Source of the DNA: Kaistia sp.
Lineage (GTDB): Bacteria; Pseudomonadota; Alphaproteobacteria; Rhizobiales; Kaistiaceae
Assembly: GCA_965229085.1 (NCBI GenBank)
Contig: OZ245859.1
Coordinates: 1,140,207-1,204,206 of the forward strand
Reading direction: 5' to 3'
DNA length: 64,000 nucleotides
Both the position numbers and the translations under genes were made by a program. The notes under the pieces were generated by a model, which saw nothing but the letters and a program-made list of their open reading frames with translations, was not told the origin of the DNA and ran no database searches. This document shows, one piece after another, positions 12,207 to 48,049 of the stretch. Numbering within the stretch: the stretch's first letter is position 1; each line of letters begins with the position of its first letter.

Positions 12207-13196
12207 TCAAGCCTCAGCCAGCAGTTGGCGGGCTGTATCGACGTCGGTCACCAGATCGGTCGGATAGCCGCCCTTCAACGCCGCCGAGATCGCGGCGATC
12301 TTGCGGGCTCCGCCGGCGACGCAGAGGCGATAGGGAATCGACTTCAGTTCGTCGAGCGCGATACCGACCATTCGATCCTGAATTCCGCCTGACACCGGGC
12401 GTCCGTCCGCATCAATGAACCGGCCGATGATGGCGGCAACCGCGCCATTGGCGACGAACGAATCGATCGTCGCGTTGTCGAGCAATTCCGCCTGGCGCAC
12501 CGTCGCCTGCGGGCCAAGGTCGCCCACGCCGAACAGGATGCGATTGGCCGATCGGACAATCGAAAACTGCCTGCTGATGGCCGGCTCGGCCAGGAGCTGA
12601 TCGCGCAGCAACGCTGTCGACAGGATCGCCGGAGCCATCAAGTTGACGCATCGCGCGGCAATGCGGTTGGCCAGCAGCGAAGAGCAAAGCTCTGGCGAAA
12701 ACGCGGTGGAGAGGCCAGTCGCCGACCCCGCCACCTGCACCACCGTCAGCGGACTGACCGGAGCCGTCAACGAGATCGCCCGCGCTGCCTCGAGCACCGT
12801 TCGGCCCCAGGCAACGCCGATGACATCGCCGGCCGATACATGATCGGCCAGGACCAGCGCAGCCGCCTCGCCCAAGCGACGCTCAAGCGCCTCGCCGTCC
12901 ATCGTCGGAATGACGATGGCGGATTCAAGTCCAAACCGCCGGACCAATGCCCGTGAGAGCTGCGCTCGGCTGGCAACGACTGTGTTGATGCGTATCGAGA
13001 CGATGCCTCGGCTCCGCGCCTCTTGCAGCATCTTGATAATCGTCACTCTGGATACGCCGATGATCTGTGCAATCTCGTTCTGCGTCAGCTCATCGACATA
13101 ATACATCCAGGCCGCCCACACGGTCGCATCTTCAAACTCAACCGGAATGCTTGCTGCGGCTGTCGATTGCGGCTGGTTGTGGTTGGCGGTGTCCAT
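12207..13196 (-). CDS. SorC/DeoR sugar-binding transcriptional regulator #1
   Basis: WAAWMYYVDELTQNEIA HTH; GVAWGRT; VAGGARKIAAISAALKGG; LVTD. Confidence 0.92.
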   Translation of the reverse strand: MDTANHNQPQSTAAASIPVEFEDATVWAAWMYYVDELTQNEIAQIIGVSRVTIIKMLQEARSRGIVSIRINTVVASRAQLSRALVRRFGLESAIVIPTMDGEALERRLGEAAALVLADHVSAGDVIGVAWGRTVLEAARAISLTAPVSPLTVVQVAGSATGLSTAFSPELCSSLLANRIAARCVNLMAPAILSTALLRDQLLAEPAISRQFSIVRSANRILFGVGDLGPQATVRQAELLDNATIDSFVANGAVAAIIGRFIDADGRPVSGGIQDRMVGIALDELKSIPYRLCVAGGARKIAAISAALKGGYPTDLVTDVDTARQLLAEA

Positions 13197-13250
13197 GAAC
13201 GAGTTCTCATCAAACTCGCCGCATGTGTCAAGCAAGGTCCAATCGGCGTA

Positions 13251-13278
13251 TTGACATATGTCGCGACACAGTTATCAT
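13251..13278 (+). promoter_or_regulatory. Putative sigma70 promoter overlapped by palindromic operator
   Basis: TTGACA(13251-13256)-16 bp-TATCAT(13273-13278); perfect palindrome GACATATGTC at 13253-13262. Confidence 0.6.
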
Positions 13279-27695: not shown

Positions 27696-28655
27696 TTGCC
27701 AAACGAATCCGACAGTGATTTCGGTACGTTGCGAGAGCAGGCCCGCGTTGCGTGGCTCTATTTCACCGGCGGCCTCACGCAGAAGGAAATCGCCGACCAG
27801 CTTGGCATCACACGCCTCAAGGTCAACCAGATCATAGGCGCTGTCAGGGCGGATGGTTCGGTTCGAATCGACGTCGACCTCCCGCTGATCGACTGCGTTC
27901 AGCTTGAGGAAGCGCTGAAGGAGAAATTCGGCCTCAGCGACGCTGTCGTCGTCCCGACCGTCGGTGACCTCTCCGAGCAGCAGCGCACGATCGGCGAAGC
28001 CGGCGGCACCATGGTCAATGATCTGATCGGCGGCCGCGATCTCGGGATCGGGATCGGCTGGGGTCACACGCTGAGCTTTGCCACGCGCCGGCTGACCGCC
28101 AAAGCGAGCCCCAATTCATGGGTGGTCAGCCTGACGGGAGGCTTCACGCGCGCCTCAGGCAACAACACGTTTGAAATCGCAACGTCGGTCGCCCGGGCGC
28201 TCAATGTCGAGTGCCACTACATCACCGCGCCGATCTATTGCTCCAGCACCGAGAGCCGCGAGACTCTGCTGCACAATGACGAGATCGCCGACGTGCTCGC
28301 CCGCACCGAAATCGCCGAGGTGGCGCTGATTTCCTGCGGCGATCTTTCCGAGCGGTCGCCGATCGTCTCACTCCGGATCGTCAAGGACAATATCGACGAT
28401 CTTCTGCGCCTCGGCGCGGTCGGGGAGATCCTTGGCTGCTTCCTGGCGGCCGACGGTCGCCCGGTCGAGCACTTCCTGAACGACAGCATCATGGCCATGT
28501 CGCTGGAGGCGCTCAAGCTGAAGCCGATATCGGTGCTGGTTGCCGGGGGCATCCACAAGGCGCCGGTCATCTATGCCGCGCTTCGCGGCAAATACGTCAA
28601 CCGCCTCGTCACCGACGAGCTCGTGGCGCGCGTCCTGCTCGAACGCGCGCCCTGA
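27696..28655 (+). CDS. SorC/DeoR sugar-binding transcriptional regulator #2 (TTG start)
   Basis: ARVAWLYFTGGLTQKEIA, GIGWGHT, VAGG, LVTDE. Confidence 0.88.
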   Translation: MPNESDSDFGTLREQARVAWLYFTGGLTQKEIADQLGITRLKVNQIIGAVRADGSVRIDVDLPLIDCVQLEEALKEKFGLSDAVVVPTVGDLSEQQRTIGEAGGTMVNDLIGGRDLGIGIGWGHTLSFATRRLTAKASPNSWVVSLTGGFTRASGNNTFEIATSVARALNVECHYITAPIYCSSTESRETLLHNDEIADVLARTEIAEVALISCGDLSERSPIVSLRIVKDNIDDLLRLGAVGEILGCFLAADGRPVEHFLNDSIMAMSLEALKLKPISVLVAGGIHKAPVIYAALRGKYVNRLVTDELVARVLLERAP

Positions 28656-28687: not shown

Positions 28688-30466
28688 TCAGCCGCGTGAA
28701 CGCAACGCGGCATCCAGCGCTTCGGTCATGGCCTTCAAGGTCACGAAGGTCGAGGCTGCACCGGGGTCGATGTGACCGATCGAGCGATCGCCGAGCTTTG
28801 CGGCCCGGCCACGGCGCGCGGCGATCGTTGCGGTTGCGTTCATCCCGGCCTCGGCTCCAGCCGTCGCAGCCTGCATGGTCTCGAGCGACGAGGCACCCTT
28901 CGCGACGGCTTCCCTCGCCCGCTCGGCTGCCGGAACCCAGGCATCGACCATCGTCTTGTCGCCGGGCTCCGTGCGGCCGCGCTCGCGAATGCCGCCGGAC
29001 GCAGCCTCGATCCAGGCCGCAACCGCGTTGGCATCGAGGTTCAGGCGATCGCTGACGGCTGTGCCAGCGCGCAGGAATGCCGTCGCATAGAGCGGCCCCG
29101 ACGACGCACCGACAGCATCGAGGAACGTCTTGGCCATCCGCTTGCACGTCGCTTCGATCGTCTCGCCTTCGGGCGCGGCCGCCAGAGCCTTCGCGACAGC
29201 CGTCCAGCCGATCTCCATGGTGACGCCGTGATCGCCGTCGCCGATGACGCCGTCGAGCTCGCTCAGCCAATCGCGCTTGGCGATGATGGCGAGGCCGACA
29301 TTCTCCATCATGCGGCGGAAGATGGCCGGCGTGATGTCGCCGGATGTCTTCAAGGGCAGATCCGAGGCAGCAGATCCGTCCGACGCCGCGTCGGCACGCA
29401 TCGCCGTGCTGCTTGCATGAGCCGAGTGGCGTCCTGAGGCCTGCGCGAGCGTCTCGCCCACCCTGAGGGCAACGCTGTGGCAGGGATGATCAAGCAGCGG
29501 CTTCAATTCCGCATCGAGCTTCATCAGCGTGATGGAGGCGCCGGCCATTTCAAGCGAGGTCGCGTATTCGCCGACCCAGCTATGATGGATACGGATGCCC
29601 CGCTCTTCGAGCAGCAGGCGCGCCTTCCTGTGAAGGAGGTAAAGCTCGATATAGGTCGTGGCGCCGAGGCCGTTGACCAGCAGCGCAACTTCGTCGCCTG
29701 CGGCAATCGTCAGATCCGCGAGGATCGTCTCGACAAGATCCGTTGCAACCTCGTCGGCACTTTCGATATGCGCGCGACGAACGCCCGGCTCGCCATGCAG
29801 GCCCATGCCGATTTCCATCTCGTCGTCGCCGATCTCAAAATTCAGCTTGCCCGTCTGCGGCAGGGAACAGGCAGACAGCGCGACGCCCATGGTGCGCGTC
29901 ATGGCGTTGGCATGGCGGGCGAGCCGGTACACTTCGTCGATGCCCATCATGCGGTCGGACGCAGCGCCAGCCACCTTGAAAACGAAGAAATCGCCCGCAA
30001 TCCCTCGCCGCTCGCCAATGCGGTCCTTAGGCGCCGATGCGACGTCGTCGGTCACCGCGATGCTGCGCACGGGCGTGCCGCCGCGGCTCAGCTCGTCGAC
30101 GGCCATGTCGAAGTTCATGACGTCGCCGTTATAGTTGCCATAGAGGAAGACGATGCCGGCTCCGTTGTCGACCTGGCGCGCCGCATCGAGAATGAAAGCG
30201 GGCGACGGCGACGCAAAGACGTTCCCGATGGCGCTGGCATCAGCGAGCCCGCGCCCGACATAGCCGGCAAAGGCAGGCTCGTGTCCGGAGCCGCCGCCGA
30301 CGACGACGCCGACCTTCCCCGCGCGGGGACCATTGACCGCGACAATGGCGCGGCCCGTCGTTCCCGCACCGCGCAGGATGTCGGGATGGGCACCGAGCAT
30401 GCCCTCGATCATTTCCGGGATGATGCGATCAACCGCGTTGATCAGCTTCTTGGTCTTTGAGGTCAT
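28688..30466 (-). CDS. Fused DhaK-DhaL (DAK1/DAK2) ketose kinase #1 (triose/tetrulose kinase family)
   Basis: GGGSGHEP, NYNGD, GLHGEPG; DhaL part GDGDHG, GPLY, GDKTMVD, GRAAKLG, DPGA. Confidence 0.9.
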   Translation of the reverse strand: MTSKTKKLINAVDRIIPEMIEGMLGAHPDILRGAGTTGRAIVAVNGPRAGKVGVVVGGGSGHEPAFAGYVGRGLADASAIGNVFASPSPAFILDAARQVDNGAGIVFLYGNYNGDVMNFDMAVDELSRGGTPVRSIAVTDDVASAPKDRIGERRGIAGDFFVFKVAGAASDRMMGIDEVYRLARHANAMTRTMGVALSACSLPQTGKLNFEIGDDEMEIGMGLHGEPGVRRAHIESADEVATDLVETILADLTIAAGDEVALLVNGLGATTYIELYLLHRKARLLLEERGIRIHHSWVGEYATSLEMAGASITLMKLDAELKPLLDHPCHSVALRVGETLAQASGRHSAHASSTAMRADAASDGSAASDLPLKTSGDITPAIFRRMMENVGLAIIAKRDWLSELDGVIGDGDHGVTMEIGWTAVAKALAAAPEGETIEATCKRMAKTFLDAVGASSGPLYATAFLRAGTAVSDRLNLDANAVAAWIEAASGGIRERGRTEPGDKTMVDAWVPAAERAREAVAKGASSLETMQAATAGAEAGMNATATIAARRGRAAKLGDRSIGHIDPGAASTFVTLKAMTEALDAALRSRG

Positions 30467-30560
30467 CGGGGATTCCGTCCAGACGGGCGTGGGCGAGGCA
30501 TGAAGTGAGGGTGGCCAGCTTGCCGCGCGCTCCCGGATGGGGCCGGCGCGCGTTGGCCGG

Positions 30561-31526
30561 CTAGATCGTTTCCTTGCGCAGATAGCGCCGCGAGATCGCA
30601 TCGAAAGAAATGGCCAGAACGACGATGGCGCCGCTGACGATACCCTGCCAGTAGGGCGACACGCCGAACAGCACGATGATGTTCTCGATGATGCCGATGA
30701 TGCAGGCGCCGAAGATGGCGCCGAGCGGCGTTCCGATACCGCCCGTCGTCGCCACGCCGCCAATGACGGCCGCGGCGATCGGTGCAAGCACCCAGGTCTC
30801 GCCGATGGAGGGCTGCGCCGTGCCGAGGCGCGCAACCATCAAGATGCCGGCAAGAGCCGACAGAAACCCGGCCAGCGTGAAGACCAGCACCCGGATGCGA
30901 TTGACCTTGATGCCGAGCATTCGCGCGGCGGCGGCGTTGTTGCCGATGGCATACATATAGCGCCCGAAGGGTGTCTTCGCCGCGAGGAAGGTCACGATTA
31001 CCAGCGCGATCAACATGATCACGAAGGGAACCGGCAGGCCAAGGATGTCACCGCGGCCGAGAAACTGAATCTCCTTGGGAATGCCGGTGATGGCAACGCC
31101 GCGCGTCAGCACAAGGTTGGCGCCGCCGATGACGCCGGCCGTGCCGATGGTGAGGACGAGGGAATGCAGTCCGAGCGCGGACACCAGAAAGCCGTTGAAG
31201 AACCCGAGCGCTGCGCCGAGCGCGAGTGCGAGCGGCAGGGCGACAATCGGCGGCCAGCCGAATGTCACCATCAACATGCCCGCCACGACACCGCAAAGAC
31301 CGCCGACCACGCCCAGCGAAAGATCGAGCTCTCCGATGATCATCAGACTGGCCTGGCCGATGGTCACCAGACCGACGAATGCCAGAGCCCTTGCGACGAC
31401 CGACAGATTGTATCCGGTCAGAAAATAGGGCGACAACAGCGCGGATATGCCGAAAATCACCACGAGAATGACGAACACGCCGGCGAGAGGGTTGGTCGCC
31501 AGTGCGGAAAAGAGCCTACGCAGCAT
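30561..31526 (-). CDS. CUT2 sugar ABC permease (RbsC-like)
   Basis: GELDLSLG, TPFGRYMYAIGNN, AAVIGG. Confidence 0.9.
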   Translation of the reverse strand: MLRRLFSALATNPLAGVFVILVVIFGISALLSPYFLTGYNLSVVARALAFVGLVTIGQASLMIIGELDLSLGVVGGLCGVVAGMLMVTFGWPPIVALPLALALGAALGFFNGFLVSALGLHSLVLTIGTAGVIGGANLVLTRGVAITGIPKEIQFLGRGDILGLPVPFVIMLIALVIVTFLAAKTPFGRYMYAIGNNAAAARMLGIKVNRIRVLVFTLAGFLSALAGILMVARLGTAQPSIGETWVLAPIAAAVIGGVATTGGIGTPLGAIFGACIIGIIENIIVLFGVSPYWQGIVSGAIVVLAISFDAISRRYLRKETI

Positions 31527-33021
31527 TCTTATGGCCTTTCGCACCGAAAATGGCGCCAACGAGGGTTTCATTGTCCGTTGTCGCAGTGACGAACTCACCG
31601 CTGATGACGCCTGAATGCATCGTGATGATGCGCGTCGAGCATTTGCGCAGTTCTGTCATTTCGGACGATATCAGGATGATGCCGATGCCATCCTCCGCCA
31701 AAGTCTTCATGATGCGGTATATTTCCGCTTTGGTTCGTACATCGATTCCCTTGGTGGGCTCGTCGAAGATGATCAGCTTCGGCCGGCGCGCCATTGCCCG
31801 TCCGATGATGGCTTTTTGCTGGTTGCCGCCCGAGAGATGAGCGATCTCCTTGGCCATGCTCGACGTCTTGATGCCATAGGCGGCGATCACGTCGGCGACG
31901 GCCGCCTTTTCCTTCCGCGCGGAGATGCTGAACCCGGCTGTCTGGTCGTGAATGGCCATGCCGATATTGTCGCGCAGCGACATCTTGGCGAAGATGCCGT
32001 GATGCTTGCGCTCTTCTGACAGGTAGATCATCCCGGCCTTGACCGATATCGCAGGGTCGCCCAGCCGCAGCGGCTCGCCGCAGAAGCGCACCGAACCCGA
32101 CTTTGCCTTTCGGAAGCCGAAAATGGTCTGCATCAGTTCCGATCGGCCCGCGCCGACCAGCCCGGCAAAGCCGAGGATCTCGCCGCGCTCCAGCATGAAA
32201 CTGGCATTGTTGAATTGCCGTCCGGTGAGCCCGTCGACCTCGAGGATCGGCCCACCCGATCGATCGAGCGCGACTTCCGGGCGAAATGTCGCGTCCAGCC
32301 GCAGAATTTCGCCGGACATCGCCTGGATCAGCCCCTCGACATCCGTATCGGCGATCCGCCCCGCGGTGACCTTCTCGCCATTGCGCAGGACCGTGTAGTC
32401 GTCGCCAATCTCGAAGACTTCATCCATCTTGTGGGAGATGAAGACGATCGCAAGGCCAGCATCGCGAAAGCCTCGCACGACTTTGAACACACGCTCGACT
32501 TCGGTCGGCGTAAGAGACGATGTCGGCTCGTCGAGAAAAAGGACTTTCATTTCCTTATTGGTCGACGCGCGCGCGATCTGCAGCAATTGCTGGTCCGGCA
32601 CGGATATGGTGCGGACGAGGTCGGTCGGCTTGGCGCGAATTCCAAAGCGATCCAGATAGTCCTTTGCCTCTGCCTCGATCTTCCGCCGATGAAACAGGGC
32701 GCCGCCATGGCCGGTCCGGCTGTAAGGCAGGAAGAGGTTCTCGGCGACGCTCATATGCGGGAACAGGCTGAGTTCCTGCGGCACATAAGCGATGGTGCGG
32801 AAGAGATCGGGAACGGTAGCCGGATCGCGTCCATCGATCGAGAGCGTCCCGCGGCTCGGCGCATAGGCACCCGTCAGGAGCTTGACGAGGGTCGACTTCC
32901 CTGCCCCGTTTTCGCCGGCGAGAATATGAACGCGCCCAAGCTCGATCGCTATATCGACATTGTCGAGAGCCGTGACGCCCGGAAAGTCACGGCCAAGATT
33001 CCTGGCTTCCAGATAGGCCAT
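31516..33021 (-). CDS. CUT2 sugar ABC ATPase (RbsA-like)
   Basis: GENGAGKST, DEPT, SGGNQQK, SSEMTEL. Confidence 0.93.
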   Translation of the reverse strand: MAYLEARNLGRDFPGVTALDNVDIAIELGRVHILAGENGAGKSTLVKLLTGAYAPSRGTLSIDGRDPATVPDLFRTIAYVPQELSLFPHMSVAENLFLPYSRTGHGGALFHRRKIEAEAKDYLDRFGIRAKPTDLVRTISVPDQQLLQIARASTNKEMKVLFLDEPTSSLTPTEVERVFKVVRGFRDAGLAIVFISHKMDEVFEIGDDYTVLRNGEKVTAGRIADTDVEGLIQAMSGEILRLDATFRPEVALDRSGGPILEVDGLTGRQFNNASFMLERGEILGFAGLVGAGRSELMQTIFGFRKAKSGSVRFCGEPLRLGDPAISVKAGMIYLSEERKHHGIFAKMSLRDNIGMAIHDQTAGFSISARKEKAAVADVIAAYGIKTSSMAKEIAHLSGGNQQKAIIGRAMARRPKLIIFDEPTKGIDVRTKAEIYRIMKTLAEDGIGIILISSEMTELRKCSTRIITMHSGVISGEFVTATTDNETLVGAIFGAKGHKNAA

Positions 33022-33133
33022 CGCATCACCCCGGATCGATCTAGGTAAAATCGAGTCACTCCCGCCGCCGCAACGATACGACGGCAGGAGCGCACGAAGG
33101 AGGGGTTTCGCGTGTGCGTCACACCCCCACTTT

Positions 33134-34078
33134 TTACTTGGGGAGATTGTCCTTGTTCAGGACGGCGATGCCGGTGTCGATATATTTCGGCGTCGCGGCG
33201 CCGGTCGCCTTCTGCCACATCGTCATAACGGCCCAATAGCCCTGCATTTCGGGCTTGGTCGACGACGTGCTGTCGGCAACGCCGTCGCGGATCATCTGCA
33301 GCATCTCGGGCAGGTCATCCATGCCGACCAGCGTCACCTGGCCGGTCTTGCCGGCTTCCTTGATCGCCTGGCCGATGCCGATCGGACCGGACGCGTCAGA
33401 AGCAACCCAGCCCTTCAGGTTCGGATGAGCCTGCATGATGGCAGCCGCCTGCTTCTGCGCCTGCTCGATGTCGTCATTGTCGATGCCGGTCGCGACGACC
33501 TTGATCTTCGGATACTGGCTGAAGAACTTCTGGTGGCAATCGGCGCGGATCTTGTGGTTGGGAGCGCTCGGCACACCCATCATGATTGCGACTTCGCCTT
33601 CTTCCTTCAGAAGCTCGACGAGGCGGCGGGCAGCGATCTCGGCCTGCTCGCAGAAGTCATTGCCGATGCTGGTGAGATTCATATCGGCCGGCGCGACCGA
33701 ATCGAACACGGTCACCGGGATATTCTGACCGACCGCCTCTTCGAGCGAAGCGCGATTGCCGGCGGCGTCGAGAAGATCGATGGCGATACCATCGGGATGA
33801 GTCGCGATCGAGCTTTCGAGGATCTGGTTCTGCTGGACAACGTCCGCCTGCTGGGGCGCGCTGTAGTCAATGGTGATCTTGGAGCCCGTCTGTGCTTCGA
33901 TCGCCTTGGCGGCCTGCTTGGCTCCATTGTTCACCTTGTCGAACCAAGGATGAACAACCTTCGGAATAATGACGAAGCGATAGCTGTCCTTCTTGGTCAT
34001 GCCCTCATTACTTTGGGCAAAGGCGGCAGTCGAGACAAGCAAAGTTGCGGCAATAGCAAGCCGCACGGCATTCTTCAT
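33134..34078 (-). CDS. CUT2 sugar ABC substrate-binding protein
   Basis: Signal peptide; IPKVVHPWF; VFDS; family-2 periplasmic fold. Confidence 0.9.
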   Translation of the reverse strand: MKNAVRLAIAATLLVSTAAFAQSNEGMTKKDSYRFVIIPKVVHPWFDKVNNGAKQAAKAIEAQTGSKITIDYSAPQQADVVQQNQILESSIATHPDGIAIDLLDAAGNRASLEEAVGQNIPVTVFDSVAPADMNLTSIGNDFCEQAEIAARRLVELLKEEGEVAIMMGVPSAPNHKIRADCHQKFFSQYPKIKVVATGIDNDDIEQAQKQAAAIMQAHPNLKGWVASDASGPIGIGQAIKEAGKTGQVTLVGMDDLPEMLQMIRDGVADSTSSTKPEMQGYWAVMTMWQKATGAATPKYIDTGIAVLNKDNLPK

Positions 34079-34359: not shown

Positions 34360-36411
34360 TCACCGCATCATCGCCGCGACATTGCCGCCGTCGACGGTCA
34401 GCACGGCCCCGGTCGACGCCCGTGACGTCAGCAGCGCCAGCCCTGCCTCGGCCACATCACGTGCCGTGACCTCGCGATGCAGCAGGTTGCCGCGCATATA
34501 GTGTTCGGGCGTGACGCCACGCGCCCGCGCGCGCTCGGCAACCATCGCATCGGTCATCAGGCCGGTGCGAATGCGGTCGGGGTTGATCGCATTGACCGTG
34601 ATCCCGTCGGCCGCATGCTCCAGCGCATACTGGCGCATGAGCGCCATGAGCGCAGCCTTCGAGGTGCCGTAGGGACCGAAGTCCGGCCCGGGATTGACGG
34701 CCTGCTTGCTGACATTGAAGAGGATGGCCCCGCCCGTCCCCTGCTTGCGCATCACCTGCACGACGGCGCGGGCGCAATAGTGATGCGCCCAGAAGTTGAG
34801 ATCGAACGCGGCTTTGAAGTCGCTGTTGGACACGTCGAGCAATGCCCCCTGCCATGCGGCGCCGGCATTGGAGACGAGGATATCGACCCCGCCGAACGCT
34901 TCGGCCACCCGCGCAATCGTGGCATCCACCGCGGCCGCATCCGTCAGGTCACAGGCAAGGCCGATGCCGCCGAGGCGCTTCGCCTCGCCTTCCACGCGCG
35001 CCGCGTCGATGTCGATCAGGGCGATTTCAGCGCCTTCGCTGCGCAGCAATTCCGCCATGGCAAGCCCGAGCCCGCCTGCCCCGCCCGTGATGACCGCGAC
35101 CTGGCGGGTCAGCGGCTTCTCGACCTGCTTGGCGAGCTTCGCCTGCTCAAGGGACCAGTATTCGATGTCGAACAGGTCCTCCTCCGAGAGAGCCTCGAAG
35201 CTGTCGATCCCCTCCGCGCCGCGGATCACGGCGATCGTCGCCTCGGCCACATCGGCGCCGATGCGCGCCGCCTTGCGGGTCGGGCCAGCGGCGAAGACGC
35301 CGAGACCCTCGACATAGAAGACCCTCGGCATCGGATCCAGCATCGTCTTGCCGCCACCGACGCGCTGGTTGTTGCGATCGAAATAGGCCTGATAGTCGGC
35401 CACGTAGTCGGCAATCCGGGCCTTGGCGATGTCTGCCCAACCAGCGAGATCGCCCGCTATGGGCGCCGGCAGGCTGATGCCGAACCGCTTGATGTGGATG
35501 ACGTGCTCGGGGGTCGCATTGCCGCGCCGCACGAGATCGCCAACATTCGGCGCCGCGCAGAAATCGAGGATGTCCGCATTGCTGCGGTGCTCCAGGACGA
35601 AGCGGCGCGGCCGCCCTTCCTGCTTGCCCGGCAGCGATATCGCGCCGCGCAGGATTGGAGCGATATCGGCCGGCGATGCGAGTGGCAGGGCGGGCGCGGA
35701 AGCCGTGCCAAAGGGCTTCGGATTGCCCTCCGCGATACGCCTTTCCGCGCGGTCGATCGCCTCGATCATCGCCTCATAGGCAACGCGCGGGTCTTCCGAC
35801 CATGTGAAGATCCCGTGCTTCAACAGGATCATTCCCGGCGCGTCGGGGCGCTCCGAAAACGCCTTGAGGCAGGCCTTCGACAGATCGAACCCAGGCATCA
35901 CATAGGGCACCACGATCATCTCGGGGAACAAGGCCCGTATGATCGCCTCGCCCCGCGGCTGGTTGGTCAGTGCGACGATGGCGTTGGCGTGGGTATGATC
36001 CACATGCCTGAACGGCAGGATCGCGTGCAGAATGGCCTCGACGGATGGATTGGGCGCGCTCGGATCGAGCAGCAGGCGCCGCTGCAGCATCACCATATCG
36101 TCGTCGGAAAGGCTCTCGTAGTTGACCATCGCCCGCAACGGTTCCAGGCGGAGCGCCGGCAGGCCGGGCGGCTCGATCTGGCCCATGTCCCAGCCGCTGC
36201 CCTTGACGCACAGCACCTCGACCGGCGTGCCGTCATGATCGTTCATGACTGTCTTGACGGATGTGTTGCCTCCGCCATGCAGCACCAGGTTGGGCTGCGA
36301 ACCAAGCAGGCGCGTCGTGTAGGTGCGGATGGCGACATCGCGGTTGATGCCCGCCTTCTCATAGCGCGAGACGACGGCTTCGAATTCGGCGTCAGACCAA
36401 CTGGATTTCAT
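34360..36411 (-). CDS. Bifunctional class II aldolase / short-chain dehydrogenase, paralog B
   Basis: Same motifs as paralog A (HGGGNTSVK, PSVEAILH, DHTHAN, NATPEHVIHIKR, YGTSK). Confidence 0.88.
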   Translation of the reverse strand: MKSSWSDAEFEAVVSRYEKAGINRDVAIRTYTTRLLGSQPNLVLHGGGNTSVKTVMNDHDGTPVEVLCVKGSGWDMGQIEPPGLPALRLEPLRAMVNYESLSDDDMVMLQRRLLLDPSAPNPSVEAILHAILPFRHVDHTHANAIVALTNQPRGEAIIRALFPEMIVVPYVMPGFDLSKACLKAFSERPDAPGMILLKHGIFTWSEDPRVAYEAMIEAIDRAERRIAEGNPKPFGTASAPALPLASPADIAPILRGAISLPGKQEGRPRRFVLEHRSNADILDFCAAPNVGDLVRRGNATPEHVIHIKRFGISLPAPIAGDLAGWADIAKARIADYVADYQAYFDRNNQRVGGGKTMLDPMPRVFYVEGLGVFAAGPTRKAARIGADVAEATIAVIRGAEGIDSFEALSEEDLFDIEYWSLEQAKLAKQVEKPLTRQVAVITGGAGGLGLAMAELLRSEGAEIALIDIDAARVEGEAKRLGGIGLACDLTDAAAVDATIARVAEAFGGVDILVSNAGAAWQGALLDVSNSDFKAAFDLNFWAHHYCARAVVQVMRKQGTGGAILFNVSKQAVNPGPDFGPYGTSKAALMALMRQYALEHAADGITVNAINPDRIRTGLMTDAMVAERARARGVTPEHYMRGNLLHREVTARDVAEAGLALLTSRASTGAVLTVDGGNVAAMMR

Positions 36412-36448: not shown

Positions 36449-36512
36449 CGCCCACGGGACAATATGTCAATTGTCATGACATGATGACAATTGACATATT
36501 GTCCCGTGGGCG
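36449..36512. repeat. Perfect 29-bp inverted repeat with 6-bp spacer in a divergent promoter region
   Basis: CGCCCACGGGACAATATGTCAATTGTCAT (36449-36477) -GACATG- ATGACAATTGACATATTGTCCCGTGGGCG (36484-36512). Confidence 0.95.
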
Positions 36513-36574
36513 CGGTTGGCAGGCTAGGGATTCTGTGCCAAGAACCTGAGGTTGCGAGGGGGTTGATACAGCGC

Positions 36575-37537
36575 ATGACATCTGACGCGATCGTTCCGGC
36601 GGAGTTCGACGATGTCGTCGTCTGGGCGGCCTGGCTCTATTATGAAGAGCAGCTGAACCAGAGCGAGATCGCCGCGCAGCTCGGCGTGTCCCGCGCGACG
36701 ATCGTCAACTACTTGCAGGAAGCCCGCGAACGCGGCGCCGTACGCATTGTCATGAGCGCGGAGGTGATGGCGCGCAGCGGCGTGGCACGGGCGCTGGCGG
36801 CGCGTTTCGGGCTCGAGGAAGCGCTGGTTATTCCGCGCAATCCGAAGGCCGACGCCGGCGAGCGTCTTCCCGCGCTTGGAGCCGCCGGTGCGCGGCAGCT
36901 TGAACGCATGATCACGCCGGGCGAGACGATTTGCGTCTCCTGGGGGCGGACGGTCCTCGCCGTCGCCGATGCCATCGCGCTGTCCCGTCCTGTCGCGGGG
37001 CTGAGCGTCGTCCAGGTCACGGGCTCGGCGATGGGCAAACGGGAATTCTCGTCCGAGCTTTGCACGGCGATCATGGCGCGCAATCTTGGCGCGACCAGCT
37101 TCAACATGCATGCACCGGCGGTGCTGAGCAGCGCGGAACTCTGCCTTGCCCTGCGAAACGAGCCTGTCCTGCAGCATCAGTTCGATCTGATCCGGCAGGC
37201 AAAGACCATCGTCTTCGGCGTCGGTGGGTTGGGGCCTGAAAGCACGATGCGCTTTGCCGATGTGACAACGGACGCCGAAATCGACGCCTATGCGGCCAAC
37301 GGCGCGAAGGCTGTTCTGATCTGCCGCTTCCTCGACGCCGAGGGGCAACAGGTCACACGCGACTTCGACCGGCGCACGATCGGGATCGAACTGCCGGAGC
37401 TCCGCGCCATCCCGCGACGGCTCTGCGTCGCGGGCGGAACATGGAAGATCGACGCTCTGAAGGCGACGCTGAACGGCGGCTTTGCGACCCATCTCGTCAC
37501 CGATATGGAAACCGCCGAGGGGCTGCTTGCCAGTTAG
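36575..37537 (+). CDS. SorC/DeoR sugar-binding transcriptional regulator #3
   Basis: WAAWLYYEEQLNQSEIA, CVSWGRT, VAGG, LVTD. Confidence 0.92.
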   Translation: MTSDAIVPAEFDDVVVWAAWLYYEEQLNQSEIAAQLGVSRATIVNYLQEARERGAVRIVMSAEVMARSGVARALAARFGLEEALVIPRNPKADAGERLPALGAAGARQLERMITPGETICVSWGRTVLAVADAIALSRPVAGLSVVQVTGSAMGKREFSSELCTAIMARNLGATSFNMHAPAVLSSAELCLALRNEPVLQHQFDLIRQAKTIVFGVGGLGPESTMRFADVTTDAEIDAYAANGAKAVLICRFLDAEGQQVTRDFDRRTIGIELPELRAIPRRLCVAGGTWKIDALKATLNGGFATHLVTDMETAEGLLAS

Positions 37538-43337: not shown

Positions 43338-43369
43338 TGTCAATTGTCAATGATAATTGACGTATGTCA
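43338..43369. promoter_or_regulatory. Putative SorC-family operator/promoter
   Basis: TGTCAATTGTCA (identical 12-mer to the 36449 repeat arm) and TTGACGTATGTCA. Confidence 0.6.
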
Positions 43370-43394: not shown

Positions 43395-45455
43395 TCAGGC
43401 CCCCGGCCCCAGAACCGTCACGGCGGGCGACCGGCAGGGGTGGTGGAGCAAAGAGGTCAGTTCGTCGTCCAGATGCAGCAGGGTGAGCGACACCCCCTCC
43501 ATATCGAGGGACGTGTAGTAGGGGCCGACAAGGCTCGCATCGACGATGAGGCCATGCGCCTTCAGGCGCTGCCGGACCCGACGGTGCAGGATGTAGAGTT
43601 CCATGGCCGGTGTGCCGCCGAGCGAGTTCACCAGCACTGCGACGCGGTCGCCATGCACCGGCTTCATTTCGGCAAGGATTCGGTCGAGCAGCAGATCGGC
43701 ACAGTCGTCGGCCGAAGCGAGCGCCCGGCGCACCACACCGGGCTCGCCATGCACGCCAACGCCAAGTTCCATGTCTTCGGGACCAAGTTCGAAACTGGGC
43801 CGACGCGTATCCAGAAGGCGCGCCGGCTCGAGAGCGAGGCCCATCGTGTAGGTGCGTGAGGCGGCGCGCCGGGTGATGAACTCGCACGCCTCCAGGCTCA
43901 GCATCCGGTCGGCCGCCGCCCCGGCAATCTTGAAGACGAAGATGTTCCCCGCCACGCCCCGTCGCGAGGCCCGTGATTCCAGAGGGGCTGAAGCGATGTC
44001 GTCGATGGTGACGATCTGGCGAACGCGCAGGCCTTCGGCCTCGGCGATCTCGGCGGCCATCTCGAAGTTCATGACGTCGCCGGAGAAGTTGCCATAGATA
44101 TAGAGCAGCCCTGCCCCGCCGTTCACGGCGCGACTTGCGGCCAGGATGGGCCCGGGCGGGGGCGCCGCGAAGATGTTCCCCACGGCCGCCGCGTCCGCAA
44201 GCCCACGGCCGACGAAGCCCCAGAAGCCCGGCTCGTGGCCTGATCCGCCGCCGATCACGATGCCCACCTTGCCGGGCCGGGGTGCGGCCGCCGCCATCAC
44301 CGCGCGCGGCGAGCCGGGCACAGGAACAATCAACGACTCATGCGCGAGAAGCGCGCCGGCGAGGCATTCGTCCACGGCGTCCTGCGGCGCATTGATCAGC
44401 TTCTTGGCGTGGCTCCGCGCCATGGCCGGCAAGGAAGACGGCGCCTCCGCGCGCCGCAGCGGCTCGATCCAGCCCTCGGCGTTCAGGATGCCCCGGCCGG
44501 TCGCCGTATCCGTCACCAGCACATTCACATGCTTGGCCCGAAGCGCGGCGAGGATCGCGGCGATCTTGTCGATACCGCCGGCAACGGCGATGCGCTGCGG
44601 AATCCGGCGGAGCATCTCGAGGTCGAGACCGATCGTCCGGTCATGCAGCGGCCCCATGACCGGCTCGCCACGCGCCGAAATGAAGCGCCCGACAATGCTG
44701 CCAACGGCGGCATGGTAATAGGAATGCTGGTCGACGCCGTCGAGAAAGCCACTTGTGTGGATCGTGCTTTCCGGGCGCAGCGATGAGATGCCCATGACGA
44801 TCCGGTCCGCCTCGGCCAGGATCGCCATCTGTTCCGCGAGGACAGGCTCGCGCAGCAGCATTTCGCGCATCTCGGGCGAGGACACGATGGCCGGAGCCGA
44901 GAGCGGAATGCACCGCGCCGTCAAGGCCTCGGCGAGACGCGAGGCGCAGGCTTCCGGCGTCCATGGGATACGCGCCGTCGTCCCGCCAGTCGCCTGGACC
45001 ACGCGCAGATCGGCCAATCCAGGATGGTCTAGGGCATCGGCCAGAGCCAGAACCGTCCGGCCCCAGGTCACGGCGATGGTGTCGCCAGGCCGGACGAAGC
45101 TCTTGAGGACCTGTGCCCCTGCCGCCCCCAGCCGTGCGATCAGCGGGCGGTCGCCACCGTCGGTCGGAATGACGAGACAATCCTGCAGGCCGAAGTGGCC
45201 CTTCAGCGCCTGAGCGATGGAAAGCTCGCGAAAGCGATCCGGAGCAATCTCGATATTGACGATGCCACGGATGCGGGCGTCGGCGAGATAGGTGTTCACC
45301 GAGGCGCGGGAAAGGCCCATCTTCTCGGCGATCTCGCCCTGCGTCAGGCCTTCCTCGTAATAGAGCCAGGCAGCCCACAGCAAGGTGTCGTCGCCAAACC
45401 GCAAGGGCATGGCGACCGTCGCGTCGCTTTCGGACTTCTGTGGTTGGCGCGCCAT
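43395..45455 (-). CDS. SorC-family regulator fused to a C-terminal DhaK domain
   Basis: One uninterrupted 687-aa frame: WAAWLYYEEGLTQGEIA...VAGG...LVTD, then KKLINAP...GGGSGHEP...NFSGD...GVHGEPG. Confidence 0.9.
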   Translation of the reverse strand: MARQPQKSESDATVAMPLRFGDDTLLWAAWLYYEEGLTQGEIAEKMGLSRASVNTYLADARIRGIVNIEIAPDRFRELSIAQALKGHFGLQDCLVIPTDGGDRPLIARLGAAGAQVLKSFVRPGDTIAVTWGRTVLALADALDHPGLADLRVVQATGGTTARIPWTPEACASRLAEALTARCIPLSAPAIVSSPEMREMLLREPVLAEQMAILAEADRIVMGISSLRPESTIHTSGFLDGVDQHSYYHAAVGSIVGRFISARGEPVMGPLHDRTIGLDLEMLRRIPQRIAVAGGIDKIAAILAALRAKHVNVLVTDTATGRGILNAEGWIEPLRRAEAPSSLPAMARSHAKKLINAPQDAVDECLAGALLAHESLIVPVPGSPRAVMAAAAPRPGKVGIVIGGGSGHEPGFWGFVGRGLADAAAVGNIFAAPPPGPILAASRAVNGGAGLLYIYGNFSGDVMNFEMAAEIAEAEGLRVRQIVTIDDIASAPLESRASRRGVAGNIFVFKIAGAAADRMLSLEACEFITRRAASRTYTMGLALEPARLLDTRRPSFELGPEDMELGVGVHGEPGVVRRALASADDCADLLLDRILAEMKPVHGDRVAVLVNSLGGTPAMELYILHRRVRQRLKAHGLIVDASLVGPYYTSLDMEGVSLTLLHLDDELTSLLHHPCRSPAVTVLGPGA

Positions 45456-46114
45456 CACAGCGCCGCCCGTTCGCGTCGCTGCATCGCATCACGCAAGGCA
45501 GCGATGATGATCGTCGCCGAGGCAGCGCCGGGATCGACATGGCCGAGCGTGCGCTGCCCGAGGCGCGCGGCGCGCCCGACGGATGCGACCATGGCCCGCG
45601 TCGCCTCGCGCCCCTCTTCCGCCGCGAGCAAGGCTGCATCGAGGCAGGCAAGCGGACCCAATCCCTCTGCCTGCGCCTGCTGTACTGCCCACGCCGCGGG
45701 CGACCAGACATCGAGCATGGTCTTGTCGCCGGGCTGCGCCTTGCCCCGCTGGCGGATGCCTTCTTCGAAGGCGGGAATGAGGTCCGGGATGGATTCAGCG
45801 GCTATGTCGCGCTGGCCGGCAAACAACTGGCCCGCCCGCATGAACGCGCTTGCATAGAGCGGACCCGTGGTCGCGCCGACGGCACCGAGAAAGGACTGCG
45901 CTGCAACCGGGAAAAGATCGCCTGCCGCAGCCCCGCTCATGGCGGCAGCAGAACTGGCGCGAACCACGGCGGCGAAACCTTCGGCCATCGAGTTGCCGTG
46001 ATCGGCATCCCCGATGACCCCATCGAGCACGCCGAGCTCGGTTCGCGCCTCCGTCAACCTGGCGGCGATGGCGCGAAACAAGTCCGTAATCTGATCCGCA
46101 TTCAAGCGCGCCAT
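45455..46114 (-). CDS. dhaL: Stand-alone DhaL (DAK2) subunit
   Basis: LDGVIGDADHG, GPLY, GDKTMLD, GRAARLG, DPGA. Confidence 0.88.
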   Translation of the reverse strand: MARLNADQITDLFRAIAARLTEARTELGVLDGVIGDADHGNSMAEGFAAVVRASSAAAMSGAAAGDLFPVAAQSFLGAVGATTGPLYASAFMRAGQLFAGQRDIAAESIPDLIPAFEEGIRQRGKAQPGDKTMLDVWSPAAWAVQQAQAEGLGPLACLDAALLAAEEGREATRAMVASVGRAARLGQRTLGHVDPGAASATIIIAALRDAMQRRERAAL

Positions 46115-46128
46115 GGCGATGGCTCCCC

Positions 46129-47868
46129 TCAGGACAGACGCTTCTCGAACGCGTCGCCCAGCGTCACGAGGATGAGGCAGCATGAGGTGGCGCCGGCGTC
46201 CGGAACGCCGCGCGACCGCTCGCCGAGACGGCTCGCCCGGCCTACCCTGGCCACGAGATCGACGGTGCTGTCGCGTCCCTGTTCGGCCGCCAGACGCATC
46301 GCCTGCAGCGCCGCAGCGAAGCCTTGCGACTTCGTCGCGTCGAAGGCCGCCACGGCTGGCACAAGCGTATCGATCAGCGTCTTGTCGCCGACATTGGCCG
46401 AGCCGGTGCGGCGGACGCCTGCAAGGCCTGCGTTCAAAAGCGCCGAGAAGCCATCCGCGTCGACAGCGCTGTGACCTGCGATGGCAGTCGCCATCTCCTG
46501 GAACATGAAGCCGTAGAGCGGCCCCATCGATCCGCCGATTTCCGACATCAGGACGTCCGACAGCACGCTGAGCGCCTGGTCGAGGCTGAGGTCCTTGCCC
46601 TCGATCCGCTCGGCAGCGCGGCCAAACCCCTTGGCCATGTTGATCCCGTGGTCGCCATCGCCGATCAACCCATCGATTTCCGACAGATGCGCCTTGTTGG
46701 CGACGATCACCGCTGCCAGCTCGGCGACAATGGCGTGCGACCCGGCATTGCGCACCGAAGGGCCGTTGATCACCACATCAGTTGCAACGGCCGACTGTGC
46801 CCCGTGATGCGAAACCCGGGTCTTGCGCACACCGGCTTCAGCCGCATCGCCCACGGGCGCAGCAACCGTTCCGGTCGTCAAGCCCGGCGCCAGCGCCTCG
46901 AGATCGAGGAGAGCCTTCGTCTCCTCGTCGAGAGCAATAACGGTCAAGGTCGCGCCGACCATCTCCAGCGAGGTGAAGTAGTTGCCGACGAACGCCTTAT
47001 GGACACGCATTCCCCGCGCCTCGAGCCCCGTCTCGATCCGGTCATAGAGCACATAGAGTTCGTTGACCGGCGTCGCTCCGAGGCCCGAAAGGAGAACCGC
47101 GACTTCGGTCCCCGGCGCCAGACCATGATCATCCATGACAATGGCCAACATGTCGTCGGCCACAGCGTCCGCGCTCTTCAGCGCCTCAACCCGCGTGCCG
47201 GGCTCACCGTGATGGCCGATACCGACCTCCATGGTTCCCGGCGCGATCTGGAAATTCGGATGGCCAACGCCCGGCAGCGTGCAGGGACCAAGGCCGACGC
47301 CGACCGAGCGGCAGGCGTCGATCGCCTTCTGCGCCGCGGCCTTCACTTCGGCGAGCGAACCACCTTGCGCGGCCTTGGCACCGCCGATCTTCCACATGAA
47401 GATCTCGCCCGCGACGCCGCGCCTTTTGGCGCGCTCAGCGGGGGATGCGGAACAAACATCATCATTGGCAACAACGGTCGCGACCTCGATACCGTCAGCG
47501 GCGACCATCTCGGCCGCCATCTTCACGTTCATGTTGTCGCCGGCATAATTGCCATAGAGCACCGCGACGCCGGCGCCGCCATCGGCGGCCCGGATCGCAT
47601 CGGCGAAGCTCTTCGCGGTCGGCGAGGAAAACAGCTCCCCCACGGCCACGGCATCGACGAGATTGCGGCCGGTATAGCCGATGAAGGCCGGCTCATGACC
47701 CGATCCACCGCCGGTCACAATCCCGACGCGGCCCGTACGCGGCGCCGCCGTCGACACCACAACCCGCGGGTTCGTGGGGTCAAGCCGAACGAGGTCCCGG
47801 TGGGCCTTGACGAAGCCGGCTACGGTCTCGTCGACCAGATCGTCCGGATCATTGATGAACCGCTGCAT
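46129..47868 (-). CDS. Fused DhaK-DhaL ketose kinase #2
   Basis: GGGSGHEP, NYAGD, GHHGEPG; GDGDHG, GDKTLID, GRASRLG, DAGA. Confidence 0.9.
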   Translation of the reverse strand: MQRFINDPDDLVDETVAGFVKAHRDLVRLDPTNPRVVVSTAAPRTGRVGIVTGGGSGHEPAFIGYTGRNLVDAVAVGELFSSPTAKSFADAIRAADGGAGVAVLYGNYAGDNMNVKMAAEMVAADGIEVATVVANDDVCSASPAERAKRRGVAGEIFMWKIGGAKAAQGGSLAEVKAAAQKAIDACRSVGVGLGPCTLPGVGHPNFQIAPGTMEVGIGHHGEPGTRVEALKSADAVADDMLAIVMDDHGLAPGTEVAVLLSGLGATPVNELYVLYDRIETGLEARGMRVHKAFVGNYFTSLEMVGATLTVIALDEETKALLDLEALAPGLTTGTVAAPVGDAAEAGVRKTRVSHHGAQSAVATDVVINGPSVRNAGSHAIVAELAAVIVANKAHLSEIDGLIGDGDHGINMAKGFGRAAERIEGKDLSLDQALSVLSDVLMSEIGGSMGPLYGFMFQEMATAIAGHSAVDADGFSALLNAGLAGVRRTGSANVGDKTLIDTLVPAVAAFDATKSQGFAAALQAMRLAAEQGRDSTVDLVARVGRASRLGERSRGVPDAGATSCCLILVTLGDAFEKRLS

Positions 47869-48049
47869 CACCACTCCCGCAAATCAACATACCGGCAGAG
47901 CACCCAGCGCACAGTTTCAGCGCCGGAACGAGCGCATGCAGAATCTCTCCTGCCTCGCGACAGGCGCTCCAGGAAGCTGTGCCGGATGTCCTCCTCCGAC
48001 GTCGCCGACAATTTCCGCGACGCTCTGAATTATGTAATTTGCGCAGAAT

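Follow-up and report, generated by a model that had tools for sequence, protein, structure and literature searches.

The window analysed here is a stretch of 64,000 nucleotides of the genome of Kaistia sp. (assembly GCA_965229085.1, contig OZ245859.1, positions 1,140,207 to 1,204,206 of the forward strand), and the element in question is a perfect palindrome of 64 bp in the 163-bp gap between an operon headed by a bifunctional class II aldolase/short-chain dehydrogenase (aldolase/SDR) gene and the gene of a SorC/DeoR-subfamily regulator, designated P0001. Comparison with related loci suggests that the inner 32 bp of the palindrome are very probably the operator of this SorC clade. For the palindrome as a whole we favour, with moderate confidence, an ordinary SorC tetramer operator that came to lie in a palindrome made by mutation via template switching, and probably not by selection; the symmetry of its outer parts would need no role of its own.

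The palindrome and its conserved core

The two arms (36449-36477 and 36484-36512) are complementary at 29 of 29 positions when the pairing is recomputed, around a 6-nt spacer, as had been claimed in a reading made from the sequence only. The arm words quoted there, TTGACATATTGTC and AATTGTCA, both occur in the sequence, and the mirrored translation of the open reading frames (ORFs), with a nearly identical peptide on both strands, is present as described. Its distances are also correct: the ATG of the aldolase/SDR gene (36411, minus strand) lies 37 bp from the left arm, and that of the SorC gene (36575) 62 bp from the right arm. The U-tract reported as lacking is indeed absent, with no T-run after either arm and a terminator scan that was null at the repeat. 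A 22-nt arm word matched the two arms only (expected 0 in 100 shuffles), and so did a 20-nt arm word with up to 3 mismatches allowed across the single-contig genome of 4,763,146 bp. Among perfect inverted repeats with spacers of up to 12 nt, the runner-up within the window has arms of 13 nt, and that of the whole genome arms of 25 nt; the repeat with 29-nt arms is thus the longest perfect inverted repeat of the genome. Folded as single-stranded DNA, it reaches -36.7 kcal/mol (z = -10.8), and the G+C content of its central 46 bp (36458-36503) is about 33% versus 65% for the genome. The sequence features of cruciform-forming palindromes are all present: the arms are long and perfect, the loop is short and the centre is rich in A+T.

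The core, formed by the inner parts of the arms, consists of four TGWCA boxes in two 12-mers separated by 8 nt (12-N8-12, a 20-bp register). Its N8, TGACATGA (36477-36484), comprises the spacer plus one base from each arm, namely the final base of the left and the initial base of the right; a further 16 nt of each arm extend beyond the core. When orthologous intergenic regions were compared, a check that the sequence-only reading had named, the TGWCA 12-N8-12 layout was found in 22 of 22 loci and in Kaistia algarum. The 22 loci (64–78% regulator identity) derive from Paracoccus aerius, Paramesorhizobium, Brucella/Ochrobactrum, Phyllobacterium, Logan assemblies and JGI metagenomes, and the regulator of K. 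algarum is 90–91% identical to P0001; the divergent aldolase/SDR gene is kept in all 22 wherever the contig extends to it. The site reads TGTCAATTGTCA-TGACATGA-TGACAATTGACA in the window and TGTCAATTGTCA-TATTGAGA-TGACAAAAGGCA in K. algarum, with TGTCAAATGACA-N8-TGTCAWWWGTCA as the P. aerius type and ACAATTGACA-N8-TGACATTAGTCA as the Brucella type. More distant homologues (43–45% identity) have TGACA/TGTCA palindromes, e.g. ATTGACAATTGTCAAT. In 122 regions upstream of SorC homologues, perfect inverted repeats reach 11 nt at most, from which it follows that long perfect arms are not a requirement of the family.

Scanning the 4.76-Mb genome with the pattern TGWCANNTGWCAN8TGWCANNTGWCA (cut-off of at least 17/20) returned two sites only, namely the core of the palindrome (20/20) and a second site at 43338-43369 (19/20), which belongs to the same gene island and has no long palindrome. 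Both 12-mers of the second site are identical in K. algarum, its 8-nt spacer and upstream flank having diverged, and this conservation pattern is a classic operator footprint for a predicted site. P. aerius possesses a weaker equivalent (16/20) near the expected end of its paralogue gene, a position estimated by analogy with the SorC-DhaK fusion gene of the window.

As tetramers built from two dimers, the SorC-family repressors DeoR and CggR each occupy two half-operators, which fall within 39 bp for DeoR and 45 bp for CggR (PMC11229326), and the 20-bp register of the core fits such an arrangement. Positions 36465-36496 have the corresponding geometry (two half-sites about two helical turns apart, approx. 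32–45 bp in total), and the site accompanies the regulator in the orthologous loci and falls within the promoter region of the operon that it would control. The earlier proposal of a symmetric double operator for a SorC tetramer is thus supported for the inner 32 bp, with their conserved boxes and second site; the support does not extend to the outer 16 nt of each arm, which fall outside the conserved operator.

The operator of the Bacillus subtilis dra-nupC-pdp operon, bound by DeoR (8r7y, 7bhy; PMC11229326), resembles the present case in the architecture of the regulator and in the regulator gene standing beside the operon, as well as in its two half-sites within approximately 39 bp, which are bound by a tetramer and overlap the promoter (PMC11229326). 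The boxes of DeoR, however, are of the TTCAA type and its operator is asymmetric (a palindrome plus a direct repeat), whereas the boxes of Kaistia are TGWCA in a symmetric 12-N8-12; moreover, the Kaistia genes are divergent and each arm adds 16 perfectly symmetric nt. The B. subtilis CggR operator, CGGGAC-N6-TGTC twice in 45 bp (PMC11229326, PMC2943609), likewise presents two half-operators about two helical turns apart to a dimer of dimers, and its half-sites are of the GAC/GTC kind, the window arm reading CGGGACAATATGTC; this resemblance of words is probably coincidental. CggR differs in being a member of another SorC subfamily with a winged-helix DNA-binding domain, P0001 matching its effector domain only, and in having a direct repeat in the leader as its site. 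In Escherichia coli, lsrR is divergent from the ATP-binding cassette (ABC) transporter operon lsrA, and the repressor LsrR controls transcription either way from the intergenic region between them; the lsr system differs in serving the autoinducer-2 (AI-2) pathway and in its box sequence, and we know of no long perfect palindrome in the lsrR-lsrA region. LsrR (4l5i), to which P0001 has a full-length match, is itself a member of the SorC/DeoR subfamily.

At the centre of the palindrome (36475-36484) a 5-bp tandem repeat, CATGA-CATGA, is present, and TGTCATGACA (36472-36481) is a perfect 10-bp palindrome placed 4 bp off the main axis. The spacer contributes a seventh box, TGACA, which breaks the mirror symmetry and lies 20 bp from the outer GGACA box.

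A putative origin by template switching

An orthologue of P0001 was detected in only 1 of 21 species of the same genus, the closest being annotated as Kaistia algarum. In the protein database the best regulator identities were 90% and then 78%, and scans of genome and metagenome contigs for closer relatives gave none above 74% besides K. algarum. The intergenic region of K. algarum (162 bp versus 163 bp in the window) is colinear on both sides, with 66 of 85 flanking positions identical. Identity rises to 23/26 in the inner boxes (left 13/13, right 10/13) and drops to 1/6 in the spacer, as expected for the unconstrained spacer of an operator. The outer 16 nt of both arms share 9 of 32 positions (left 6/16, right 3/16), about the random level and significantly less than the flanks (Fisher p = 2e-6). 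The differences are thus clustered and confined to the arms, while all 29 pairs of the window are complementary, the pattern that template switching would leave. This turnover is not accounted for by altered specificity, since P0001 and its K. algarum counterpart have identical DNA-binding regions.

K. algarum itself carries an imperfect repeat at the same position, with arms of about 25–27 nt, some 20 positions pairing and two indels. Its outer arms, though unlike those of the window, are complementary to one another (GACACAATGCA versus TGCATT-TGTC; 10 matches, one gap), a score reached in 30 of 20,000 shuffles, which indicates that within each lineage a change in one arm goes along with a change in the other. 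The outermost part of the left arm, CGCCCAC, still matches K. algarum (CGCAGAC) at 5 of 7 positions, and that of the right arm matches nothing there; for this reason copying from the left arm to the right is the likely direction.

Three landmarks place the Kaistia operator one register (20 bp) nearer to sorC than the outgroup operator: the distance from the aldolase start to the operator is 53 bp in Kaistia versus 30–35 bp in outgroups, that from the operator to a conserved TGGCA is 20 bp versus 40–50 bp, and that from the operator to the EFDD codons of the regulator is 104–105 bp versus 119–153 bp (119–140 bp except at one locus). In the MAFFT alignment the left inner arm of Kaistia aligns with the second 12-mer of the outgroups, and no boxes were found in the outgroup loci at the position of the Kaistia right arm. 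K. algarum keeps AGACA-N8-TGTCAATTGTCA, corresponding to box 2, N8 and pair 2 of the outgroup layout. Given the 20-bp shift and the absence of a right arm in the outgroups, the right arm seems to be an inverted copy specific to this lineage. The recent local inverted duplication put forward in the sequence-only reading finds support in modified form; the outer arms of both Kaistia species have undergone turnover jointly. Two other schemes were abandoned. That the two inner arms are pair 1 and pair 2 of the outgroups was dropped, since the landmarks and MAFFT favour the left inner arm as pair 2 and a new right arm; a single template switch from an ancestor resembling K. algarum was rejected because the left outer arm differs as well (6/16).

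The sequence of events that we propose would start from an ancestral operator of the form pair 1-N8-pair 2. In the Kaistia ancestor an intramolecular template switch would have copied the left part, inverted, to the right, so that a half-operator arose anew on that side, a long quasi-palindrome was formed and the old pair 1 was left to decay. Such a switch belongs to a known class of replication error, primed by hairpins at quasi-palindromes. In the lineage of the window the left outer arm would then have changed, so that its GACA box came to lie 3 nt instead of 8 nt from the inner box, and a recent re-homogenisation would finally have produced the 29/29 pairing, reaching 16 nt past the operator on each side. 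The probability that 16 unconstrained outer pairs survive since the species split is about 0.02 (an estimate assuming approx. 11% flank change per lineage), which means that the last homogenisation was recent or that the symmetry has been maintained.

Correction of imperfect to perfect inverted repeats by template switching is described for E. coli reporters (PMC7202029), preferential correction of this kind for Proteobacteria (PMC5941160), and expansion of inverted repeats at transcription-factor sites by template switching for yeast promoters (PMC13100816). With these examples the Kaistia case shares an imperfect repeat in a relative versus a longer perfect one here, differences that are clustered, confined to the arms and raise complementarity, and a transcription-factor site in a promoter region. 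It differs in that it is deduced from two genomes plus outgroups and in the size of the event (29-nt arms), and the portions of PMC7202029, PMC5941160 and PMC13100816 available to us do not describe a bacterial operator moved by one 20-bp register, as seems to have happened here.

Several points weigh against this reading. The outer arms cannot be aligned to the outgroups, and at least two switch events are needed. With K. algarum as the single close relative in the databases, the order and direction of the switches cannot be rigorously polarised, and a paired change of arms in two species would be expected equally from selection for symmetry. The link between P0001 and the operator is drawn from co-location and conservation; three further SorC-type proteins are encoded within 35 kb, among them the SorC-DhaK fusion, whose recognition helix is similar and which could bind one or both sites.

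Other explanations for the outer symmetry

Among the alternatives, the one that survives best, although we regard it as unlikely, takes the whole 64 bp as a selected, extended symmetric operator, in which seven GACA/TGTC boxes spaced by 6–8 bp would accommodate more than one tetramer (an octamer-like array) or two regulators, P0001 and the SorC-DhaK fusion, the symmetry being kept since both divergent promoters need equal control. Complementary outer arms in both Kaistia species despite their differing sequences, and an outer pair of GACAAT/ATTGTC boxes in both, are consistent with it. So are the box centres of the window at offsets 10/30, 18/38 and 25/45 from 36449, each pair 20 bp apart and thus offering alternative registers, and the paralogue with a similar recognition helix encoded 6 kb away. 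However, the second site and all orthologous operators have four boxes and no long arms, the spacing between outer and inner boxes (3 nt in the window versus 8 nt in K. algarum) is hard to fit to a fixed protein geometry, no box falls in the GC-rich terminal 9 nt of either arm, and an identity of 29/29 is not required for protein binding. Taken more broadly, a functional outer symmetry, be it a seven-box 64-bp platform for two tetramers or for a pair of SorC-type regulators (P0001 and the SorC-DhaK fusion), or a supercoiling-driven flip between duplex and cruciform that would switch both promoters together, appears to us rather improbable. If it were true, selection for symmetry would lie behind the joint change of the arms, and template switching would restore that symmetry.

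Considerably less probable is a cruciform that is extruded in negatively supercoiled DNA and would act as a supercoiling-sensitive switch, removing or creating promoter and operator. The 29 perfect pairs, the 6-nt loop, the low G+C content of the centre (36458-36503) and the stability of the hairpin (-36.7 kcal/mol for each strand) would suit it, but no relative has arms that could be extruded: K. algarum pairs at approximately 20 of 27 positions with indels, and other homologues at 11 nt or fewer. The regulatory system is consequently not dependent on a cruciform, nor is a cruciform needed, since the second site and all orthologues have short, imperfect repeats; furthermore, a bound tetramer would keep the DNA in duplex form.

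Assemblers sometimes produce long perfect palindromes, and the true sequence might accordingly be an imperfect repeat such as that of K. algarum. Such an assembly or consensus artefact is highly improbable, because the intergenic region matches that of K. algarum in length and colinearity; besides, the genome is one closed contig, and a fold-back would run into the reverse complement of the left flank, whereas the actual continuation is the correct SorC leader. A look-up of exact proteins for an independent assembly of the same strain gave no match. We give equally little credence to a non-operator element (leader RNA hairpin, terminator, mobile-element end or recombination site), for which a strong hairpin, if transcribed, and a 6-nt centre resembling the layout of tyrosine-recombinase sites might be cited, but which is at odds with the missing T-run, with flanking genes that both point away, and with a core whose position is conserved with the regulator across genera.

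Individual candidates of this class were rejected one by one. Rfam gave only sub-threshold matches to microRNA precursors, typical of any long hairpin, and a known RNA family was discarded; a terminator failed on the absent T-run and the null scan at the repeat. A repeated or mobile element (repetitive extragenic palindrome, REP, or miniature inverted-repeat transposable element, MITE) was set aside because the repeat is single-copy in the genome even at 3 mismatches, and searches of plasmids and viral contigs with the repeat found no match. A dif/Xer-like site was rejected on the conservation of position with the regulator and on the lack of sequence similarity to dif.

Neighbouring genes, predicted regulation and significance

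The coordinates of the palindrome, its boxes and the neighbouring genes are collected in Table 1. P0001 has the domain architecture of SorC/DeoR regulators (PF04198, 190 bits, plus HTH_11) and full-length matches in the structure database to DeoR (8r7y, E = 5e-31), SorC (2w48) and LsrR (4l5i). Its score against NF053881 DeoR (186 bits) is below the equivalog cut-off, making it a member of the family and not DeoR itself. Four SorC-type genes are found within 35 kb (12207-13196, 27696-28655, 36575-37537 and the SorC-DhaK fusion, 43395-45458), one of the four being fused to a Dak1 domain, and three Dak-type kinase modules are present (within ORF 28688-30835, at 45455-46183 and at 46129-47874). 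The recognition helices of P0001 and of the SorC-DhaK fusion are similar (SRASVNTYL versus SRATIVNYL).

Table 1. Positions of the palindrome, its boxes, promoter-like signals and neighbouring genes (window coordinates; those preceded by C1 lie in the genome outside the window)
Feature	Coordinates	Strand	Remarks
Left arm, CGCCCACGGGACAATATGTCAATTGTCAT	36449-36477	none	perfect inverted repeat
Spacer, GACATG	36478-36483		6 nt
Right arm, ATGACAATTGACATATTGTCCCGTGGGCG	36484-36512		probably the copied arm
Core operator (predicted), TGTCAATTGTCA-N8-TGACAATTGACA	36465-36496		four TGWCA boxes, 12-N8-12, 20-bp register
Outer GACA box, left arm	36458-36461		3 nt from inner box; 8 nt in K. algarum and outgroups
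Outer TGTC box, right arm	36500-36503		mirror of 36458-36461
Second operator (predicted), TGACATACGTCA-ATTATCAT-TGACAATTGACA	43338-43369	minus	62 bp upstream of the permease-SBP-ATPase-permease-PfkB operon
Promoter-like TTGTCA-18-CATATT	36471-36500	plus	9/12, TG before second hexamer; faces SorC gene
Mirror promoter-like match	36490-36461	minus	faces aldolase/SDR gene
Bifunctional class II aldolase/short-chain dehydrogenase	34360-36411	minus	NF006192, 993 bits; PF00596 and PF00106; first gene of divergent operon
Remaining aldolase/SDR operon	28688-34078	minus
Sugar-binding protein (SBP)	33134-34078	minus
ABC ATPase	31516-33021	minus
Permease	30561-31598	minus
Dak1-Dak2 kinase	inside ORF 28688-30835	minus
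P0001, SorC/DeoR-subfamily regulator	36575-37537	plus	320 aa; N-terminal helix-turn-helix (HTH) and PF04198 sugar-binding domain
Permease-SBP-ATPase-permease-PfkB kinase operon	43275 down to 37534	minus	convergent on P0001
CATCGTTT/AAACGATG palindromes	C1: 1417090-1417134, 3056322-3056358, 1785512-1785548, 4329057-4329091, 2010096-2010130

A tetramer of P0001 (a dimer of dimers) on 36465-36496 would repress the aldolase/SDR-ABC-Dak kinase operon as well as its own gene, and the inducer would be a phosphorylated intermediate, a ketose or a polyol, that the Dak or PfkB kinases produce. The second site would place the ABC-PfkB operon under the same control, with either P0001 or the paralogous SorC-DhaK fusion acting there. 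As to promoters, each arm contains an outward TTGACA. The sigma-70-like matches in Table 1 agree with the consensus at 9 of 12 positions only; their mirror-image occurrence on the two strands follows from the palindrome itself, and K. algarum does not conserve the -10-like word. The palindrome as the core of a divergent promoter, as the sequence-only reading had it, is plausible but unproven. A sigma-54 promoter at the conserved GGTTGGCAG was rejected, the -12 element being absent when the sequence is read.

Further observations concern the surroundings of the palindrome and the genome at large. The SorC leader (36513-36560) contains the words GGTTGGCAG, TTCTGTGC and GGTTGCGAGGGGG in both Kaistia species, and TGGCA and TTCTGTGC reappear in some outgroup SorC leaders. 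Conservation in K. algarum is also seen for the boxes ATTGACATATGTCGCGACAC and GTGTCAAGCAAG upstream of SorC paralogue 1 (13225-13269), the conserved boxes of this Kaistia paralogue reading TGTCG-CGACA-TA-TGTCA; being TGWCA-like in another arrangement, they are probably the paralogue's own operator. Five loci of the Brucella/Ochrobactrum/Phyllobacterium group (L019, L022, L023, L025 and L101) have a second inverted repeat between the aldolase start and the operator, in the variants CATGGAAAA..TTTTCCATG, CCATGGGAAA..TTTCCCATGG, CATGAAAAA..TTTTTCATG and CCTCATGGAAA..TTTCCATGAGG. Its perfect pairing survives changes in both arms between species, and it may be a leader RNA hairpin or a site kept symmetric by template switching. 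Outside the window, at least 5 places of the genome (Table 1) have perfect palindromes that share the core CATCGTTT-(loop)-AAACGATG, with 15–21 nt per arm; these could represent a repeated palindromic element or be sites at which a global regulator acts.

Both the type of operator and the mutation that would have built the palindrome are of known kinds, and no new mechanism is indicated. For an unstudied alphaproteobacterial clade of SorC/DeoR regulators, comparison alone defines a putative operator (TGWCA, 12-N8-12) and a two-site regulon, with the aldolase/SDR-ABC-Dak kinase operon and the ABC-PfkB operon as predicted targets. The locus would also be a clear natural bacterial case in which a transcription-factor site was rebuilt by copying half of itself in inverted orientation, apparently with a shift of one 20-bp register, by the process that the reports cited above propose for perfect inverted repeats of Proteobacteria and show at yeast promoters. 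With the longest perfect palindrome of the genome placed on a divergent promoter, Kaistia sp. offers a test case for whether symmetry made by mutation has regulatory or structural consequences.

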